Part shown: in pieces, positions 10,902 through 58,146 of the stretch
Layout: every line of letters starts with the position of its first letter
Position numbering within the stretch: the first letter of the stretch is position 1
Source: Lachnospiraceae bacterium
GTDB taxonomy: Bacteria > Bacillota > Clostridia > Lachnospirales > Lachnospiraceae
NCBI GenBank assembly: GCA_016281385.1
Contig: JAEEIN010000062.1
Span: 1,494 to 65,493, forward strand
Reading direction: 5' to 3'
DNA length: 64,000 bases
Position numbers and translations under genes: made by a program
Notes under the pieces: model-generated
Told to the model about the DNA's origin: nothing
Databases searched by the model: none
Seen by the model: the letters and a program-made list of their open reading frames with translations, nothing else

Positions 10902-11588
10902 ATGGGAATAAACGCAGCCATTCTTATAGTGGATGATGATGAAAATATCGGAAATATGCTGGAGGAAGCATTGAAAACGGAAGGATACAGACCCATCCGG
11001 GCTTATTCGGGGACGGAAGCTTTAATGATCCTTGAACGGGAAAAGCCGGATCTTATCCTGCTTGACTTAATGCTTCCCGGTCTTTCCGGAGAAGATGTCC
11101 TTTCAAAAATAAAGGGTATTCCCGCCATTATAATGAGCGCTAAATCCGACGTGGATCACAAGGTAAAGCTTCTTTATGAAGGTGCCTGTGACTATGTTAC
11201 AAAGCCCTTTGTCATTTCGGAACTTCTTGCCCGTATTGCCGTGGTATTAAGGCTCTATTCCTCAGCGGCTCCCCAGGCAACTGCCGCTCCGGAAAACGTT
11301 ATAAGCGCAAACGGAGTGGATCTTGACTATTCTCTCTTTACCGCAACCTGCGCAGGTAAGGAGGTTTCACTTACCAGAACGGAGACCGCCATCCTTCATA
11401 TCCTTATGTTAAATGCCGGCCGTCCCCTTGGTAAAAACACCATTCTTGACCGTATAATGGACAGCACCCCCGATTGTACGGATCGTTCTTTAAAACAGCA
11501 TATCAGTAACATCAGAAAGAAACTTGAAGCCGCCGACGGCAAGGATCACATCGAAGCTGTCTACGGTATCGGTTTCCGTTTTCTCTGA
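10902..11588 (+). CDS. OmpR-family response regulator
   Basis: ILIVDDD, LLDLMLP and YVTKPF motifs; winged-helix end HISNIRKKL...IEAVYGIGFRF. Confidence 0.92.
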   Translation: MGINAAILIVDDDENIGNMLEEALKTEGYRPIRAYSGTEALMILEREKPDLILLDLMLPGLSGEDVLSKIKGIPAIIMSAKSDVDHKVKLLYEGACDYVTKPFVISELLARIAVVLRLYSSAAPQATAAPENVISANGVDLDYSLFTATCAGKEVSLTRTETAILHILMLNAGRPLGKNTILDRIMDSTPDCTDRSLKQHISNIRKKLEAADGKDHIEAVYGIGFRFL

Positions 11589-11639
11589 TCGTCAAAAATC
11601 TTGACGATTTCTTGACACTTTTTTGGCCGCTTTCTTGAC
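11588..11639 (+). promoter_or_regulatory. Three TCTTGAC direct repeats, candidate OmpR-family operator of the ABC operon
   Basis: TCTTGAC at 11599, 11610 and 11633 (spacings 11 and 23 nt). The first copy also lies within the inverted repeat ATCGTCAA-N5-TTGACGAT (11588-11608). Confidence 0.6.
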
Positions 11640-11697
11640 CTTTGTTTCTTATTATGTCCATGTAAACAGGAAACAGATAAAGAGAGAGGTACAAAAA

Positions 11698-12612
11698 ATG
11701 GAATATGTTTTCAATGCAGACAATCTTTCAAAATCATACGGAAAGTTCAAAGCCCTTGACGGACTGAACATGTCGGTGGAAAAGGGTTCCATCTACGGTT
11801 TCGTCGGAAAGAACGGAGCCGGAAAAACAACACTGATCCGTCTTCTTTGCGGACTCCAGCGTCCCACAGGCGGCAGCTTTGAACTCTTCGGAACATCCAA
11901 TGAAGGTAATTCCCTTTCACTTGAACGCAGACGTCTCGGCGCTGTGGTTGAATCTCCCGCAGTCTACAAGGACATGACGGCAAGGGATAACCTTATCCAG
12001 CAGCATCTCATTCTCGGATTACCCGATTTCAAAGAAGTGGACGAACTTTTAAATATAGTAGGCCTTGCAGATACAGGGAGAAAGAAAGTACGTAACTTTT
12101 CCCTCGGTATGAAGCAGCGCCTGGGCATTGCCATCGCCCTTTGCGGACATCCCGATCTTGTGATCCTTGACGAGCCAACCAACGGACTTGACCCTCAGGG
12201 AATCATCGAGATCAGAGAGCTGATCTTAAAGCTTAACCGCGAAAGGGGCATCACCTTCATCATCTCAAGCCACATCCTTGACGAGCTTTCAAGACTGGCA
12301 ACTCACTACGGTTTCATCGACAAAGGACATATCGTAAGGGAGATGAGTGCGGAAGAGTTAAGAAAGGAATGCCGCAAAGCGGTTCGCATGACGGTAAGCG
12401 ATACCGGTATCCTTGCAAAGATCATGGAAGAAAAGAATATCGAATACAAGATCATCGATGATACCCATGCGGACGTGTATACGGAGCTTAACTTCTCGGA
12501 TATCGCAGCGGCATTTGCAAGTGCAAACTGCAACATCATAACAATGGAAGAACACGACGAAAGCCTTGAAGCTTTCTATCTCTCCCTGGTCGGAGGCGGA
12601 GAACATGCTTAG
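11698..12612 (+). CDS. ABC ATP-binding protein, LanF/BcrA type
   Basis: GKNGAGKTT, an E-loop (GAVVESP) instead of a Q-loop, FSLGMKQRL and LDEPTNGLDP. Confidence 0.9.
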   Translation: MEYVFNADNLSKSYGKFKALDGLNMSVEKGSIYGFVGKNGAGKTTLIRLLCGLQRPTGGSFELFGTSNEGNSLSLERRRLGAVVESPAVYKDMTARDNLIQQHLILGLPDFKEVDELLNIVGLADTGRKKVRNFSLGMKQRLGIAIALCGHPDLVILDEPTNGLDPQGIIEIRELILKLNRERGITFIISSHILDELSRLATHYGFIDKGHIVREMSAEELRKECRKAVRMTVSDTGILAKIMEEKNIEYKIIDDTHADVYTELNFSDIAAAFASANCNIITMEEHDESLEAFYLSLVGGGEHA

Positions 12613-48019: not shown

Positions 48020-49048
48020 ATGCACATACCCGAGAATTACTTAAGCCCCATCACCTGTGGTGTGATGACCGCCGCAATGGCACCTGTATGGGTACATTCG
48101 GTAAAGAAAGTCGCAAAGGAGCTTCCCAAGGAGAAGATCGCTCTTATCGGAGTAGGCGCAGCATTTTCATTCGTAGGAATGATGTTCAACGTTCCCCTTC
48201 CGGGTGGCACCACGGGACATGCTACCGGCGGAATGCTCATTGCCGCAGTACTGGGACCGGAGGCAGCCTGCCTTGCCATGTCGGCAGCTTTGCTTTTACA
48301 GGCCCTTTTGTTCGGAGACGGAGGCATTCTTTCCTTTGGAGCAAACTGCTTCAACATGGCCTTTGTCCTTCCCTATTTCGGATATTTCATATATCAGCTG
48401 ATCTTAAAGCTTCTTGCAAAGAAGCGGGAGGCAACCTCATCTCAGAAGGTGATCGCTTCGGGTATCGGAGCTTACGCTGCCATCAATGCCGCTGCATTAT
48501 GTGCCGCCATTGAGTTTGGCGTTCAGCCTTACCTGTTCAAGGATGCTGCAGGTCAGGCACTCTATTGTCCTTACGGACTTGATGTTGCCATCCCTTCCAT
48601 GATGATCGGACATCTGACATTGTTCGGTATTGCCGAGGTCGTATTTACAACGGCGATCCTTGCATACATACTAAAGACAGCTCCCGGAGCCGTTAAGAAC
48701 GAGACAGCGGATGATGCGGGAAAGAAGAAGGGCATTACCGCAATATCCATTCTTCTTGCGGCACTTATTGTTCTTGTTCCTTTGGGACTTCTGGCTGAAG
48801 GAACCGCATGGGGCGAATGGGGAACCGATGAGATCGCCGAGATTGAGACAAACGGAGTTGCCCTTGGTTATACACCCGCCGGAATGGAAAACGGCTTTTC
48901 AATGGAAGCACTGATACCGGATTATGCCATAAACGGTCTTCCGGATATTGCGGGATATATTGTTTCTGCTATCATAGGAGTAGCGGTAATGGTAATTTTG
49001 TTCCGTTTGGCAGGAGCAGCATTTAATGGAAAGAAACAAAAAGCTTGA
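48020..49048 (+). CDS. cbiM: Ni/Co ECF transporter substrate component CbiM/NikM (LarMN-like) with a PDGLE-like C-terminus
   Basis: N-terminal MHIP metal-binding motif; MFNVPLPGGTTGH, QALLFGDGG, GTAWGEW and PDY. Confidence 0.88.
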   Translation: MHIPENYLSPITCGVMTAAMAPVWVHSVKKVAKELPKEKIALIGVGAAFSFVGMMFNVPLPGGTTGHATGGMLIAAVLGPEAACLAMSAALLLQALLFGDGGILSFGANCFNMAFVLPYFGYFIYQLILKLLAKKREATSSQKVIASGIGAYAAINAAALCAAIEFGVQPYLFKDAAGQALYCPYGLDVAIPSMMIGHLTLFGIAEVVFTTAILAYILKTAPGAVKNETADDAGKKKGITAISILLAALIVLVPLGLLAEGTAWGEWGTDEIAEIETNGVALGYTPAGMENGFSMEALIPDYAINGLPDIAGYIVSAIIGVAVMVILFRLAGAAFNGKKQKA

Positions 49049-49832
49049 TGAACTTCCGGACTGGATGCTTGAGAAGACCGTTTATGAGCCTGTAAAGGGC
49101 AGGGACGGATTTCTTGCGGGCAGCATGCTCAGGTTCATGAAACTGTTCAGACATTTTCATATGGAGGGGGATTCTTCCGTCACTTATGCGCGCGCAGGTA
49201 TGAGACTTTTGCTGTGCTTAGGTGTTATCGTGATGCTTGCATTGTCCCACAATCTGTTTTACAGCGCATGTGTGGCGGCGGGATTTCTTCTGTATTTATC
49301 TTTTCAGAGGATAGAGGTCATCAAAAGGGTGATCTCATCCTCTTTTTCTGCGTCTTTATTTACACTTCTTGTTATGCTCCCGGCTTACTTTGCATATGGT
49401 TCCGATGCCTTTATCACCATTACGATCAAGGTATTTCTGTCCGTGGGTTCCCTTGCTTTGCTGACGGGGATAACACCCTGGAACAAGATCACGGCAAGTC
49501 TTCGGATGATCAGGATACCAAACGTTGTCATTTTCATTCTGGATATGACGATCCACTACATCCTGCTTCTGGGAAACATCGCCTTTGAAATGCTGGAAGC
49601 CCTGAAAGTACGCAGCATTGGCAGAAACAGGAACAAAAAGGGCAGCTTTTCCGGAATCCTTGGTACGGTTTTTCTTAAAGCGACGGAGATGTCCGAGGAA
49701 ACAAGGCAGGCGATGGAATGCCGGCTCTTTAACGGAAATTATGAAAGAAGAAAAGAAACTTTGCGTTTCGAAAGCTTTATTCCTTCTGTATTTTTGCTGA
49801 TTTATATAGTACTATTGTTGTATCTGAGGTAA
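49026..49832 (+). CDS. cbiQ: ECF transporter T component (CbiQ/NikQ/LarQ)
   Basis: Multiple TMs; ALKVR and AMECR XRX motifs. Confidence 0.82.
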   Translation: MERNKKLDELPDWMLEKTVYEPVKGRDGFLAGSMLRFMKLFRHFHMEGDSSVTYARAGMRLLLCLGVIVMLALSHNLFYSACVAAGFLLYLSFQRIEVIKRVISSSFSASLFTLLVMLPAYFAYGSDAFITITIKVFLSVGSLALLTGITPWNKITASLRMIRIPNVVIFILDMTIHYILLLGNIAFEMLEALKVRSIGRNRNKKGSFSGILGTVFLKATEMSEETRQAMECRLFNGNYERRKETLRFESFIPSVFLLIYIVLLLYLR

Positions 49833-49840
49833 CAAGGCGA

Positions 49841-50506
49841 ATGCTCATAGAATTACGGGATATCAATTTTGAATATGAAGATTCGGTGGCGTTGAAAGAT
49901 ATCACCCTTTCCGTGGAGAAGGGGGAATGCATCGGTCTGGAGGGAGATAACGGAAGCGGAAAATCCACCCTTTTGAAGCTCCTCAACGGGCTTGTTTTTC
50001 AAAGCAGCGGCACTTATCTTTTCAACGGAACGAAGATCGACGGAAAGGTTCTTCAGGATGAGCGATTTTCCAAGGCTTTTCATCAGAGGATAGGGTATAT
50101 CTTCCAGAATCCCGATACCCAGCTTTTCTGCGGAAGCGTAAGGGAAGAGGTCGAGTTCGGTCCGCGACAGATGGGACTTTCCGAGGAAGAGATAAGGAAG
50201 CGGGCTGACGATGTGATCGCCATGATAGGTCTTGAAAAACTTGAAGAAAGACCGCCATATCATTTAAGCGGCGGCGAAAAGAAGAAGACCGCCATTGCCT
50301 GTGTGCTTTCCATGAATCCGGAGATACTTATGATCGACGAGCCCATGAGCGGCCTTGACCGCAAGACCCGGGAATGGATGCTCGGATTTTTAAAAGCATG
50401 GAAGAAAGCGGGAAAAACGCTGATCATAGTCACACATGATGAAAAACTGTTGACCGAGATCGCCGACAGGGTTGTCACTATCGGCGAGGACCACAGGATC
50501 GTCTGA
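49841..50506 (+). CDS. cbiO: ECF transporter ATPase (CbiO/NikO/LarO)
   Basis: GDNGSGKST, FQNPDTQLF, HLSGGEKK and IDEP. Confidence 0.88.
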   Translation: MLIELRDINFEYEDSVALKDITLSVEKGECIGLEGDNGSGKSTLLKLLNGLVFQSSGTYLFNGTKIDGKVLQDERFSKAFHQRIGYIFQNPDTQLFCGSVREEVEFGPRQMGLSEEEIRKRADDVIAMIGLEKLEERPPYHLSGGEKKKTAIACVLSMNPEILMIDEPMSGLDRKTREWMLGFLKAWKKAGKTLIIVTHDEKLLTEIADRVVTIGEDHRIV

Positions 50507-50521
50507 TCGGAAAGGCTGTTT

Positions 50522-51277
50522 ATGGATAAAAACGAATTGAGAGTCCTTTTGGAAGCCTACAAAGAAGGGGCTGTAACTGAGGACGAGATCATCTTGAAGA
50601 TAAAGGAGGCGCCCTTTGAAGATCTTGGTTATGCCAGGATCGATACCCACAGAGGTTTAAGACAGGGCGTGAATGAAGTCATCTACGGGGCGGGCAAGAC
50701 ACCCGAGCAGGTGCTTGGCATTGCAAGGGCGATGCGCGAAAAGAGTGACCGCCCGATACTGATCACCCGGATGAAACCCGATGCGGTGGAACTGATGGAG
50801 GGACAGCCCGACATACAGTTTAGCTACGACCCTGCAAGCAGGATCGGTATCTGCGGCACGATCCCCGAACCTGACGGACTTGGGAAGATCGTTGTTGTTA
50901 CGGGTGGGACCAGTGACATGCCTGTAGCCGAGGAAGCCGCAAAAACCGCTGAGTTTCTCGGAAATGAAGTGGAAAGGGTGTATGACGCGGGTGTCGCAGG
51001 TCTTCACAGACTCCTCTCCAAGCTTGACGTGCTGATGAGCGCAAAGGTTGTTATTGCCATTGCGGGAATGGAAGGGGCCCTTGCCAGTGTCGTTGGCGGA
51101 CTCGTTGACTGTCCTGTCATCGCAGTGCCCACCAGTATCGGTTACGGAGCAAGCTTCAACGGACTTTCCGCACTTTTGTCGATGCTTAATTCCTGCGCCA
51201 GCGGAGTGAGCGTGGTCAACATAGACAACGGGTTCGGCGCTGCCTATCAGGCAAGTATGATCAATCACGTGAAATGA
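50522..51277 (+). CDS. larB: Nickel pincer cofactor biosynthesis protein LarB
   Basis: [56 protein letters not shown] and [11 protein letters not shown]. Confidence 0.93.
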
Positions 51278-51284
51278 GGCATGA

Positions 51285-52592
51285 ATGAAAACTTTATATA
51301 TCGAATGTAATATGGGCGCAGCCGGAGACATGCTGACTGCGGCACTGCTGGAGCTGCTTCCCGAAGAGAAGCAGAAAGCTTTTTTTTCAAAATTCAATGA
51401 TCACGTTCTTGAAGGAGTGGCTGTTTCCTGCGAGAAGGTCACAAAATGCGGCATCGAAGGCACCCACATGATCGTGACCGTCAACGGCGAGGAAGAAGAA
51501 AGTGTGGATGAGCACGCTTATCACCATCATGACCATGAGGAACATGATCACCACCACCATCACGATCACGAGGAACATGATCATCACGAGCATGAACATC
51601 ATCATGACCATGAAGAGCACGATCATGATCACGGGCATCACCATCACCACTACAGTATGAAGGATGTTACGAATACGATCCGTTCCATGGATGTTCCCGA
51701 AAATGTGAAGGAAAAGGCCATAAAGGTATACGGGCTCATAGCTGAAGCCGAAAGCCATGCTCACGGAAAGCCCGTGGAGGAAGTTCATTTCCACGAGGTC
51801 GGAAGCAAGGATGCGATAGTCGATGTTACTGCCGTCTGCTATCTTATGAATGAGATCGGGGCAAAACGGGTTGTTGTTTCACCCATACATGTGGGGTCGG
51901 GACAGGTTCGCTGCGCTCACGGAGTAATGCCGGTTCCCGCACCTGCTACGGAGTATATCCTTCGGGGTGTGCCCACATATCAGGGAAAGATAAAGGGAGA
52001 GCTCTGTACTCCCACCGGTGCCGCACTTCTTAAATCCTTTGCGGATGATTTCGGCCCTCAGCCTTTGATGAAGGTTGAAAAGACCGGTATCGGCTGCGGA
52101 AAGAAGGATTTCGAGGCTGCAAACTGCGTGAGGGTATTTCTCGGTGAGACCGTGTCGGAAAGAAGCGGTGATTCCATCATTGAACTTGATGCAAATGTGG
52201 ATGACATGACTGCCGAAGAGATCGGCTTTGCCATGGACAGGCTCTTTGCCGCAGGGGCAAGAGAGGTATTTACTATCCCGGTCCAGATGAAGAAGAACCG
52301 TCCGGGAACGCTCATTACCGTTATCTGTACGGAAGATACAAAGGAAAGTGTTGTTTCTGCATTCTTTAAACATACCACTACCATCGGTATCCGCGAGAAG
52401 AAGTGTGAGAGATACGTTTTGTCAAGGACGGCGGGAGTGATCCGCACGGAGTTTGGGGATATGCGGACAAAGACTTCGGAAGGCTATGGAGTGAAGCGTA
52501 CAAAGATCGAATTCGACGATGCGGCCAAAATCGCTGAAGCGACGGGAATGTCACTTCGTGAAGTGAGGGCCTTGCCGGAAAAGAATGATTGA
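51285..52592 (+). CDS. larC: Nickel pincer cofactor biosynthesis protein LarC (single fused ORF)
   Basis: GAAGDM, His-rich tract, HFHEVG, HGVMPVPAPAT, GELCTPTGAA, ANVDD, MKKNRPG and TTIGIR. Confidence 0.93.
   Translation: MKTLYIECNMGAAGDMLTAALLELLPEEKQKAFFSKFNDHVLEGVAVSCEKVTKCGIEGTHMIVTVNGEEEESVDEHAYHHHDHEEHDHHHHHDHEEHDHHEHEHHHDHEEHDHDHGHHHHHYSMKDVTNTIRSMDVPENVKEKAIKVYGLIAEAESHAHGKPVEEVHFHEVGSKDAIVDVTAVCYLMNEIGAKRVVVSPIHVGSGQVRCAHGVMPVPAPATEYILRGVPTYQGKIKGELCTPTGAALLKSFADDFGPQPLMKVEKTGIGCGKKDFEAANCVRVFLGETVSERSGDSIIELDANVDDMTAEEIGFAMDRLFAAGAREVFTIPVQMKKNRPGTLITVICTEDTKESVVSAFFKHTTTIGIREKKCERYVLSRTAGVIRTEFGDMRTKTSEGYGVKRTKIEFDDAAKIAEATGMSLREVRALPEKND
51513..51650 (+). repeat. His-rich coding repeat in larC
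   Basis: HDHEEHDH occurs three times within a His/Asp/Glu tract of about 46 codons. Confidence 0.85.
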
Positions 52593-55199: not shown

Positions 55200-56186
55200 T
55201 TATTCTTTTTCTATGAAGATCTTACAGATTCCAATGAATGCCGCATATATGATTCCGGCAACAGGGAAGATGATCCCTGCAAGCTGCCACTTGTTGTAAC
55301 CGAGACCGAACACCATGAACACCGCAACCACGAGGCACCAGTAAGCGCCGCTGAGCTTTGATGATATCCTGTCCGCCCTTTTCTGTTCGGGAGTAGGCAT
55401 GTCCTCTTTAAGGAGCTTCTTATAGATCCCCTCGGTCCTTCCGGTGTAAATGAGGATTCCGACACCGCATGCAACCATAACAAGAAGAAGACTTACCATG
55501 GATACGATCACCAATGCGGGAGCGCTCAGGATTCCCGAGGTAACAACACCGATGGGGCTTAAGATGAACAAAGCAACCGCAAGTGTTGTAAGTAAAAGGC
55601 GCTTCTTTTCAAAAGCATTTTTCTTTTCCTTTACCATTCCGTCAACGCCGTAAAGTGTGTCATATTCTTCTTTTTCCATGAAGGCCATATCCTTTTCCTT
55701 GGCTTCTATGGTGATCCACATGATCACTCCTACGACAATACATATAAACAAACAGATCAGACCCAAAGCTGCGGCTGCAACTTCAGAGATCACATTGGGC
55801 ATAACGGATGACACGCCTGCCAGTTCTATGAGGATCACCGGGCATAAAACAAAGAGCATTGTTGCGATAACTGCTGCGGGGGTATTTCTTTTTACGATCT
55901 CTATATAAGATGAAGCATCTTCAAGAGAAACCTTTCTTACGTTTACAATTTCTGACACATCTGTCGCAACGTTTCCGGGTTCAGCCTCAATCTCATCTTT
56001 TAAAAGGTAATCCGTGCTTACACCGAAGATTTCGGCAAGCTTTATTATCTTCGCAAGATCGGGAACCGCCTGTGCGCTTTCCCATTTGGAAACCGACTGT
56101 CTTGATACCGAAAGCATCTCTGCCAGCTCCTCCTGTGACCATCCGTTCTTTTTTCTTTCGTTAATAATTTTGTCTGCAAGTATCAT
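55200..56186 (-). CDS. XRE-family HTH regulator with C-terminal membrane segments
   Basis: MILADKIINERKKNGWSQEELAEMLSVSRQSVSKWE...PDL..IIKLAEIFGVSTDYLL, then about 6 TM segments. RBS AAAGGA before ATG 56186. Confidence 0.88.
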   Translation of the reverse strand: MILADKIINERKKNGWSQEELAEMLSVSRQSVSKWESAQAVPDLAKIIKLAEIFGVSTDYLLKDEIEAEPGNVATDVSEIVNVRKVSLEDASSYIEIVKRNTPAAVIATMLFVLCPVILIELAGVSSVMPNVISEVAAAALGLICLFICIVVGVIMWITIEAKEKDMAFMEKEEYDTLYGVDGMVKEKKNAFEKKRLLLTTLAVALFILSPIGVVTSGILSAPALVIVSMVSLLLVMVACGVGILIYTGRTEGIYKKLLKEDMPTPEQKRADRISSKLSGAYWCLVVAVFMVFGLGYNKWQLAGIIFPVAGIIYAAFIGICKIFIEKE

Positions 56187-56420
56187 TTTTATATCCTTTC
56201 CGGGCTTTGCCCTGTGTATTTCACCGGGCAAATTCATTTTAACGTTTTGCCCTTTCGTTTACAATGCGATCATACAAAAATCCCCGGTTGCATTCTAACA
56301 ATCAGGCTTTTCAATTTGTCAACCGACGGTTGCAATTGCGCATTTTGGGGGCAAAAATGAAGCGCAAATCCTTCATACGAGAAATTTGCACAGGAGATAT
56401 AAGCAATGGTTAAAAAGTGT

Positions 56421-56450
56421 TTGACACGAACAAATGTTCAGGGTTAAAAT
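56421..56450 (+). promoter_or_regulatory. Sigma-A promoter with a Firmicutes LexA (SOS/Cheo) box in the spacer
   Basis: TTGACA (56421), CGAACAAATGTTCA (56427-56440), TAAAAT (56445). Confidence 0.8.
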
Positions 56451-56540
56451 AATCTTGGGCATTACCTAAAACGGTAAGCGGTTCGCCTTTTGCACCGGAT
56501 AGACTGTATCCGCACTCCCAGTTTAAAGGAGGTGTTGCGT

Positions 56541-56714
56541 ATGGGAAATCTGAAGAAAGGCAGGCTTTACAGTAGTTGTATGGACTTACTGGCAATACTT
56601 GGTTCCGTAGCTTCGATTGTGGGAACGATCCTTACAGTCGTCTATAGGATCATGGACGTCAGAAGTAAAAAACATAGAACGAAAAAAAGCAACCGCCATT
56701 TCGCCAAGGACTAA
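56541..56714 (+). CDS. Putative type I toxin: small single-TM peptide with a basic C-terminus
   Basis: SD AAAGGAGGTG then MGNLKKGRLYSSCMDLLAILGSVASIVGTILTVVYRIMDVRSKKHRTKKSNRHFAKD (57 aa; 44 aa from Met 56580). The mRNA ends are complementary to each other. Confidence 0.75.
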   Translation: MGNLKKGRLYSSCMDLLAILGSVASIVGTILTVVYRIMDVRSKKHRTKKSNRHFAKD

Positions 56715-56776
56715 GTTGCTTTTTTTCGTAACTATAAACTAAGGCGAACCGTTTGCTATAGGTAATGCCTTTTTGC
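56679..56776 (-). ncRNA. Putative antisense antitoxin RNA (about 100 nt)
   Basis: Minus-strand promoter TTGATT (56811-56806), 17 nt, TATTCT (56788-56783) with extended TG. It ends at the 15-bp inverted repeat 56679-56693/56715-56729 and overlaps the toxin 3' end. Confidence 0.65.
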
Positions 56777-56823
56777 ACTTAAAGAATAGCATTATAATCT
56801 GAAAAAATCAATAGATAGGGGAT

Positions 56824-56868
56824 AACACAAAGATCCGGCGGGAATTGCTTCCGCCGGATCTTCGTGTT
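56824..56868. terminator. Strong hairpin terminating the minus-strand microprotein gene and insulating the TA locus
   Basis: AACAC-A-AAGATCCGGCGG...CCGCCGGATCTT-C-GTGTT. Confidence 0.8.
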
Positions 56869-56883
56869 GAAAGGAACTATAAT

Positions 56884-57003
56884 CTATCGTGCTGTAGTCT
56901 TTTTCATTTCATCCCATGCGATGGAACCGAAGATAACCAGTCCTGCGCCTGCAATGATAATTGTTGCTGCTATAGAAAGGATGCTTCCTAATAAACTTAA
57001 CAT
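56884..57003 (-). CDS. 39-aa hydrophobic membrane microprotein (absent from the ORF track)
   Basis: MLSLLGSILSIAATIIIAGAGLVIFGSIAWDEMKKTTAR*. SD GGAGGT 6 nt upstream, promoter TTCACT-17-TATACT (57078-57050) and a downstream terminator. Confidence 0.75.
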   Translation of the reverse strand: MLSLLGSILSIAATIIIAGAGLVIFGSIAWDEMKKTTAR

Positions 57004-57160
57004 ATGTATACCTCCCGGATAAACCGAATTGTTTTCTTCTTACACTTACAGTATAAGATGGGAACTGCGAAAAGTGAAACGACAAAAAGTTATGTTTGTG
57101 ATAAGTAACACTTGAGGCAAAAACGGTTTGTTGTTACAATAAAGTCAAGGAGAAAATGAA

Positions 57161-58088: not shown

Positions 58089-58146
58089 TTGAAAAATCGA
58101 ACGAATGTTCATATAATGAAAATCAAGGAGAGCGAACGTATGTACG
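58089..58146 (+). promoter_or_regulatory. Sigma-A promoter with LexA box(es)
   Basis: TTGAAA (58089), 17 nt containing CGAACGAATGTTCA (58098-58111), TATAAT (58112). A second degenerate box CGAACGTATGTACG (58133-58146) lies over the start codon. Confidence 0.82.

Follow-up and report, generated by a model that had tools for sequence, protein, structure and literature searches.

A conserved, apparently uncatalogued family of probable type I toxin-antitoxin cassettes in Lachnospiraceae with a LexA-boxed clade and a predicted two-state mRNA

What is encoded by a cassette of ~390 bases that is flanked by a LysR gene and by a divergent gene for an HTH_3 membrane protein in a Lachnospiraceae genome, and does it answer to DNA damage? 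The window analyzed here is a 64,000-nt stretch of Lachnospiraceae bacterium (GCA_016281385.1, contig JAEEIN010000062.1, positions 1,494-65,493 of the forward strand), and all coordinates below are positions in it. An initial annotation, made from the letters of the window, had read the cassette as an SOS-controlled type I toxin-antitoxin (TA) locus with a fold-back mRNA, and all of the elements that it named (promoter, arms, anti-Shine-Dalgarno (anti-SD), Shine-Dalgarno (SD), open reading frame (ORF), inverted repeat, and convergent promoter) were found where it had placed them. Our comparative analyses suggest that the locus is very probably a type I TA system, and the explanation that best covers the whole, which we hold with moderate confidence, is an SOS-inducible module made of a single-helix membrane peptide (likely toxin) and a predicted antisense RNA that overlaps the 3' end of the mRNA.

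The mRNA promoter is of sigma-A type (56421-56450, + strand; TTGACA at 56421, an 18-nt spacer, and TAAAAT at 56445), matches the consensus at 11 of 12 bases, and occupies the same position in homologues of the clade to which the window belongs (clade A, see below), with a LexA (SOS) operator, CGAACAAATGTTCA, between its -35 and -10 elements (56427-56440). Transcription would start near 56457 and yield a putative mRNA of ~319 nt (56457-56775), and folding this stretch, as had been proposed, gave -115.3 kcal/mol (z = -7.7), with 0 of 100 shuffles as good. At its 5' end lies an arm (56457-56490, comprising 56458-56468 and 56474-56489) whose partner in the full-length RNA is the 3' arm (56741-56756 and 56759-56769, extending with the mRNA U-tract over 56741-56774) and which is predicted to form a CCUUU:GAAAGG pairing instead if the 3' arm is missing or blocked. 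There follow, on the same strand, a small conserved 5'-UTR hairpin (56496-56512; two-sided changes in 3 of 5 pairs), an anti-SD (56513-56520) that can pair with the SD or, alternatively, with the region of the first start codon (UGGGA), and the SD itself, GGAGGTG (56528-56534). Two start codons in one frame, ATG 56541 and ATG 56580, share the stop at 56712-56714, such that a 57-aa ORF (56541-56714) fuses a conserved leader to a 44-aa peptide (56580-56714), the putative type I toxin, which has a single transmembrane (TM) segment (hydropathy 2.4 over 19 aa) and a basic tail with 9 K/R. Within the leader sits a conserved, SD-like GAAAGG element (56555-56561), the candidate switch element.

The 3' part of the cassette appears to serve two transcripts. 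A 15-bp inverted repeat (56679-56729, arms 56679-56693 and 56715-56729) holds the stop codon in its loop and would terminate the antisense RNA, and possibly the mRNA prematurely; 4 of its 10 compared pairs show two-sided changes. From the minus strand, a convergent promoter (TTGATT-17-TATTCT, 56783-56811) would produce an antisense antitoxin RNA of ~98 nt with two hairpins (56679-56776, fold z about -3) that covers the 3' arm entirely. In the window this promoter scores 4/6 + 4/6, below the threshold of the promoter scanner and absent from its output, and its support comes from position-matched, mostly TTGACA-type promoters in homologues. These dimensions agree with the size ranges for type I systems in the available part of PMC8594479 (mRNA 150-400 nt, hydrophobic peptide 20-60 aa, cis antisense RNA 60-200 nt), with the antisense RNA gene recognized by its gene signals (promoter and covarying terminator) and the SD predicted to be sequestered in the primary transcript, in both its nascent and full-length forms.

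To place the cassette among relatives, we collected homologues from metagenomes with an 18-mer of the 5' arm (at least 120 matches) and ran a profile built from the first copies on the collected loci, which gave 153 matches, 88 of them full length and falling into 45 clusters at 93% identity. These split into clade A (19 clusters, including the window) and clade B (26 clusters) with 100/100 support on a tree of 43. Most homologues were recruited through the exact 18-mer, so that invariance there is by construction, and the copies are related to one another. The complementarity of the two mRNA ends, which the initial annotation had pointed out, is retained in these homologues: in an alignment (A1) of 40 of the 45 clusters (five near-duplicate, N-containing or deleted ones omitted), pairing is kept in 96.9% of cells and both partners are changed in 15 of the 44 pairs, a level reached by 0 of 500 shuffles, with slid controls at 38-52%. 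The invariance of the inner stem is partly owed to its use as the search seed; in two distant relatives that were found otherwise (L401 and G000:C31), both strands of the core stem carry changes. Of the 33 copies with enough flank, 32 have a TTG-17-TAnnnT promoter pointing towards the mRNA 3' end (0.5 expected), the sole exception being a partly deleted copy, and the TM ORF bears the mark of codon-level selection (clade A identity 0.78/0.93/0.54 by codon position). Covarying stem, antisense promoter and covarying terminator thus lend comparative support to the type I anatomy, which, on this sequence evidence, is under selection. Separately, the loop of the internal hairpin (56695-56712) keeps CGCC and CCAAGG and varies between them, even between tandem copies (L158), which makes it a candidate specificity determinant for antitoxin pairing; many copies repeat CCAAGG where the 3' arm begins.

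Two features go beyond the initial annotation, namely a conserved leader ORF and a predicted switch in the 5' arm. The strong SD serves the upstream ATG in all copies at a spacing of 7-10 nt (43 of 43), within the SD peak of the genome, and all 43 leaders stay open at least to 9 nt before the TM start (shuffled sequences would give 21 early stops), counts whose significance is overstated by the kinship of the copies. Of the 45 copies, 13 fuse leader and TM ORF in frame, and 11 of these are among the 19 in clade A, the window copy included; in 25 of the 30 copies without fusion, the leader ends between -9 and +10 nt relative to the TM start, a layout that by analogy is of the translational-coupling type, like mok/hok.

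Evaluating the promoter further, we scanned the 2.67-Mb genome with a strict LexA pattern (GAAC[AG]NN[CT]GTTC), which revealed only 4 sites: one in the cassette promoter and the others upstream of recA, of uvrB, and of a TIGR03916/TIGR03915 repair operon. The genes that we take to be recA and uvrB were recognized from their translated starts; lexA is present as well, preceded by looser boxes. Because the strict sites are shared with recA, uvrB and the repair operon, we infer that the cassette box is the organism's SOS operator, and because the mRNA promoter carries this operator, overlapping it and matching the recA, uvrB and lexA sites, the cassette is most likely SOS-inducible. Among homologues, the box is found in 13 of the 18 clade A copies with enough upstream sequence and in 2 of 24 in clade B, against an expectation of 0.02 for either clade; in 6 of the 19 copies of clade A, about a third, it is either absent or no longer intact. 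In 13 copies it lies in the -35/-10 spacer amid variable flanks and unrelated neighbors and, since the flanking genes differ between copies, it appears to travel with the cassette. Antisense promoter regions carried no LexA box in any of 45 copies. Mapping boxed and unboxed labels on the tree requires 7 changes, counted without direction since the tree (43 copies) has no outgroup. The box that had been noticed in the promoter was thereby borne out, with comparative evidence tying operator to promoter; its conservation holds in clade A and fails family-wide, and LexA control, as judged from these boxes, is a feature of one clade and not of the whole family. That this copy is under LexA control we consider very likely indeed. 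A side observation concerns the strict site of the repair operon, a LexA box at 58098-58111, 1.7 kb off and directly before the TIGR03916 radical-SAM / TIGR03915 genes, which places that operon in the SOS regulon of this genome.

The distribution of the family is patchy. A pattern search gave 5 true matches in 401 genomes of the bacterial family (two of seven pattern matches, L389 and L391, were chance), and a class-wide sample gave 4 matches in 251 genomes, with the RNA scaffold confined to the window and one genome of the same family; matches in G023:C4 and G008:C16 were fragments. Scans with 16-mers returned mostly chance hits, with 1 of 16 viral matches and, among the genome matches listed, 5 of 120 being genuine (L064, L069, L096, L110, L113). 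Three homologous loci were assigned to Lachnospiraceae. Each copy has its own, unrelated neighbors (flagellin, bile-salt hydrolase, glycosyltransferases, transporters), tandem arrays occur at four loci (L158, L180, L237, L246), 1-2 copies lie in viral contigs, and blastn against plasmids and phages gave no match. By these sequence comparisons the unit is a self-contained cassette. The viral contig L283 has a clade B copy, reversed, at about 1700-2035, flanked by genes whose products match nothing in Pfam.

Decay of the cassette is one-sided. The TM ORF is deleted and the antisense half retained at four distinct junctions, and 13 decayed matches consist of the 3' half only, with the single 5'-only match having lost both; such a bias would be expected if the peptide were harmful without the antisense RNA. 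A distant relative (G000:C31, about 11490-11745, - strand; also L395:990-1243) shares the RNA scaffold, its core stem showing compensatory changes, and carries a single 30-aa TM ORF without leader and without LexA box; a decayed 3'-half copy lies near C31:18940-19040. This type suggests, on sequence grounds, a wider superfamily with exchangeable peptides. Searches for further copies of it gave 5 chance viral matches and 0 in 150 genomes of the bacterial family.

Database comparisons revealed no named family for either RNA or peptide. In Rfam, nothing came near a gathering score for the window and 9 other loci; Pfam and NCBIfam gave best E values of 0.002 and 0.004, both to unrelated TM families; and PHROGs held no family accounting for the peptide, in line with the remark of the initial annotation that it did not recognize it. 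The family is thus apparently uncatalogued in Rfam, Pfam, NCBIfam and PHROGs. A peptide profile scored over 7987 candidates gave 677 proteins at E <= 1, forming 320 clusters at 50% identity, whose database names are "hypothetical protein" of Waltera and Lachnospiraceae; a direct peptide search returned only 2 near-identical proteins and none in viral contigs. We also considered an identity with Hol_Tox (PF16935), for which the sole lead was a chance-level Atlas feature score of 0.80 for one homologue, all of whose scores were below 0.9; no Hol_Tox match appeared among the best 25 of 26 Pfam families for 37 members.

RNA-library contigs that are 95-98% identical to the window span 56447-57035 (X1 and X2, probably one data set), 56470-56753 (X3), 56472-56636 (X5) and 56491-56653 (X12), and several begin or end near the predicted mRNA ends. 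Being blind to strand and level, and selected with the window stretch, they give a weak hint of transcription; no sequencing run contained half of the words of the element. Such contigs also cover an unannotated hydrophobic ORF of 39 aa (57003-56884, - strand) that is convergent with the cassette and has its own SD, a promoter-like site (57078-57050) and a terminator hairpin (56824-56868), with no match in Pfam or NCBIfam. One contig of run X15 joins 55200 to 56397 on opposite strands, which suggests that a segment with the HTH membrane-protein gene is inverted in another strain. Elsewhere in the window, at 48020-52592, lie what we take from ORF translations to be nickel/cobalt ECF transport genes followed by LarB- and LarC-like genes, the LarC-like product being His-rich.

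We next consider how the mRNA itself may be controlled. The GAAAGG element in the leader is complementary to the CCUUU of the 5' arm, and this alternative helix can pair in 97.1% of cells; it is mostly invariant, and its single two-sided column is partly an alignment-register effect. The helix is predicted at about 0.9 probability in the nascent and internally terminated forms, and the predicted probability that GAAAGG is unpaired rises from 0.04 in the short form to 0.60 in the full-length form in 42 of 42 copies (three with Ns or a deletion omitted). Forcing the antitoxin target to be single-stranded in the window RNA brought back the closed fold, with GAAAGG unpaired falling from 0.69 to 0.01. 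Opening the leader ribosome site is likewise predicted to cost less in the full-length RNA: all 19 clade A copies show this, by 3.5 kcal/mol on average, as do 22 of the 23 in clade B, and in the window the cost goes from 14.8 kcal/mol (short) to 10.5 kcal/mol (full-length). The initial annotation had expected a shorter, more translatable isoform ending at the internal hairpin, and the predictions run the other way in every clade A copy: the short isoform is modeled as more closed than the full-length RNA, and the end-to-end fold as loosening, not locking, the ribosome entry site. At full length the leader site still costs about 10.8 kcal/mol to open, and a further activating step may therefore be needed.

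The two clades differ in what the switch would expose. In the full-length RNA, the TM start is predicted to open more readily in all 23 clade B copies but in only 9 of 19 in clade A, and GAAAGG lies 7-14 nt from the TM start in clade B and 16-21 nt in clade A. As the AAAGG spacing peak of the genome is 6-13 nt (240 of 313 sites), the clade A distance falls outside it and GAAAGG there is not the SD of the peptide ORF; only in clade B does it stand at SD distance from the peptide start. A spacer hairpin that might move GAAAGG into SD range in clade A proved weak (mean -0.6 versus -0.4 kcal/mol in shuffled sequences, none in the window). In the C31 relative, the SD is predicted to be paired in all three forms.

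Among described systems, the cassette shares the convergent, 3'-overlapping antitoxin of TxpA/RatA, BsrG/SR4, Fst/RNAII, SprG/SprF, YonT and the C. difficile modules. According to the available parts of PMC4147584 and PMC6563280, TxpA/RatA, BsrG/SR4 and YonT/SR6 of Bacillus subtilis and CD2517.1-RCd8, CD2907.1-RCd9 and CD0956.2-RCd10 of C. difficile likewise have a convergent antisense RNA over the mRNA 3' end (~75-120 nt), far from the start codon, and a small peptide whose TM helix is N-terminal and whose tail is rich in lysine. The cassette differs from TxpA-type modules by its leader ORF, by the 29 bp of its 5'/3' stem and by a 5' arm predicted to take two states; LexA control goes unmentioned in the accessible descriptions of TxpA-type and C. 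difficile modules (sigma-B and c-di-GMP in the latter). We found no sequence homology to TxpA/RatA, BsrG/SR4, Fst/RNAII, SprG/SprF, YonT or C. difficile models, the best hit being YonT at E 0.08 in 1 of 37. As far as the descriptions at hand go, SprG1/SprF1 of S. aureus resembles the 57/44-aa pair in that SprG1 makes two peptides from two in-frame starts, whereas in most relatives of the cassette the upstream start is out of frame or stopped, and Fst/RNAII of E. faecalis has a bidirectional terminator common to Fst and its convergent antitoxin.

The initial annotation had likened the locus to TisB/IstR, and of this likeness the LexA control stands. TisB/IstR-1, DinQ/AgrB and SymE/SymR of E. 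coli, in the parts of PMC5848175 and PMC8309996 available, also carry a LexA box on the toxin promoter and none on the antitoxin promoter, and TisB and DinQ are single-TM peptides like that of the cassette. However, IstR-1 is divergent and targets the 5' UTR, whereas the antitoxin here is convergent and overlaps the 3' end as in TxpA/RatA, BsrG/SR4 and the C. difficile type; tisB and dinQ are activated by 5' processing; the operator is of the Firmicutes GAAC-N4-GTTC type, unlike those of E. coli; the peptide gave no TisB family match; and a mok-like leader ORF is added. In the accounts accessible to us, the cassette has in common with Hok/Sok (mok), Ldr/Rdl (ldrX) and AapA/IsoA the long-distance 5'/3' pairing, silencing by a structure formed during transcription, and coupling of the toxin to a leader ORF, yet in those systems the fold-back locks the ribosome-binding site, 3' trimming activates and the antitoxin acts on the 5' region, whereas in the cassette the 5' end is predicted to close when the 3' arm is lost, and it is the 3' arm that the predicted antitoxin, at 56679-56776, covers. 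The predicted behavior also resembles that of TimP/TimR of Salmonella, where, in the available part of PMC11295053, a conformational change activates without processing and the antitoxin undoes the active fold; TimP has a 5'-UTR pseudoknot and a divergent sRNA, with LexA control undescribed in that part. By sequence features, then, the module resembles a Gram-positive 3'-overlap system of TxpA/RatA type to which a promoter like that of tisB and a leader like that of hok have been added. Every LexA-controlled type I system named in the accessible portions of PMC8594479, PMC6563280, PMC11295053, PMC8167048, PMC4147584, PMC5848175, PMC8309996 and PMC6733600 is from E. coli, and a 2019 review, in the part available, lists validated clostridial type I modules from C. 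difficile only. Our literature search found no description of the cassette family or of a LexA-boxed Firmicutes type I system, and supplements of small-protein and structured-RNA surveys may list members; in the accessible part of one (Fozo 2010, PMC2887945, supplement file 6), two rows with a similar basic tail are marked "probable false positive", and we make no link to them since their N-termini differ.

Combining these features, we propose the following course of events. LexA would repress the mRNA, and the boxless antisense promoter would stay on. In nascent RNA the 5' arm is predicted to pair with GAAAGG, a pairing potential that is conserved, and the resulting closed domain would cage the leader SD and start codon. 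Once complete, the 3' arm would capture the 5' arm and give a stable fold-back RNA, in which opening the ribosome site is predicted to cost ~3.5-4 kcal/mol less, with the anti-SD still masking part of it. Ribosomes would then enter at the leader start, making the 57-aa form here and, in relatives with an out-of-frame leader, coupling to a 41-45-aa peptide. The antisense RNA is predicted to pair with the 3' arm and re-close the 5' end 200 nt away, probably followed by RNase III decay. After DNA damage the mRNA would outnumber the antisense RNA, and the peptide, by analogy with TisB and DinQ, would perturb the membrane and slow growth. We put the modeled capture of the 5' arm by the 3' arm as the real activating event at somewhat under an even chance. 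More tentative still, and in our estimate rather doubtful, is the full picture of an SOS-wired Firmicutes type I family with inverted RNA logic, in which fold-back would activate, only complete mRNAs carrying the antitoxin target would be translated, and the antitoxin would silence from 200 nt away by strand displacement.

An unlikely, classical version keeps LexA control and type I anatomy and makes the fold-back RNA an inert store from which cleavage generates the translated form, either by 5' trimming, as in tisB and dinQ, or by RNase III in the long stem; the pairing of 5' arm and GAAAGG would then be a co-transcriptional safety catch comparable to the metastable hairpins of aapA3. It would fit the high opening cost of the full-length leader site, the predicted masking of SD or start codon by the anti-SD in both forms, the predicted closure of the C31 relative at full length, and the rule, stated in the available part of PMC6733600, that primary transcripts in type I systems are inert. 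Set against this are the prediction that 3' trimming of the Hok/AapA kind would close the 5' end further and the statement, in the accessible part of PMC11295053, that the Gram-positive fst and txpA mRNAs have no known processed form.

The nature of the peptide and the meaning of the box could also be read otherwise. Chromosomal location, patchy occurrence and ordinary neighborhoods, and weakly the RNA contigs over the mRNA region in gut samples without recorded treatment, would suit a mild SOS-induced membrane modulator, such as a brake on division or proton-motive force, for which the antisense RNA sets a threshold and speeds shut-off after repair. We think this improbable, as the ORF is repeatedly lost with the antisense half kept, tandem arrays and a viral-contig copy occur, and several layers of translational silencing fit a harmful product. 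Least credible to us, and quite improbable, is an addiction-type cassette with no link to DNA damage, in which the LexA-like box is incidental or belongs to the divergent HTH membrane-protein gene: most of the family is indeed boxless, clade B nearly throughout and clade A in part, but the box keeps its place in the promoter spacer of 13 copies with variable flanks and unrelated neighbors, matches the recA and uvrB operators of the genome, and lies ~165 nt from the predicted promoter of the divergent gene. We therefore retain the SOS-inducible type I module as the preferred reading, with the membrane peptide, by analogy, the likely toxin.

In E. coli, LexA-controlled type I toxins are a main route to fluoroquinolone-induced persistence. 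What we describe is a real, conserved and, as far as the sequence comparisons reach, apparently uncatalogued type I TA family whose copy in the window belongs to a LexA-boxed clade, and DNA damage would likely switch on this boxed branch. The family thus offers candidates in gut bacteria, for which sister copies with and without the box could act as natural controls, and a concrete hypothesis for how a 3'-overlapping antitoxin might control a distant start codon and how an mRNA might be kept silent before its antitoxin target exists. As the family is unannotated, hundreds of "hypothetical proteins" would gain a function. If the proposal is true, gut Lachnospiraceae would possess a TisB-like dormancy switch for DNA damage, independently built from Gram-positive parts, and the switch would provide a mechanism for how unprocessed Gram-positive toxin mRNAs, such as fst and txpA, become active.
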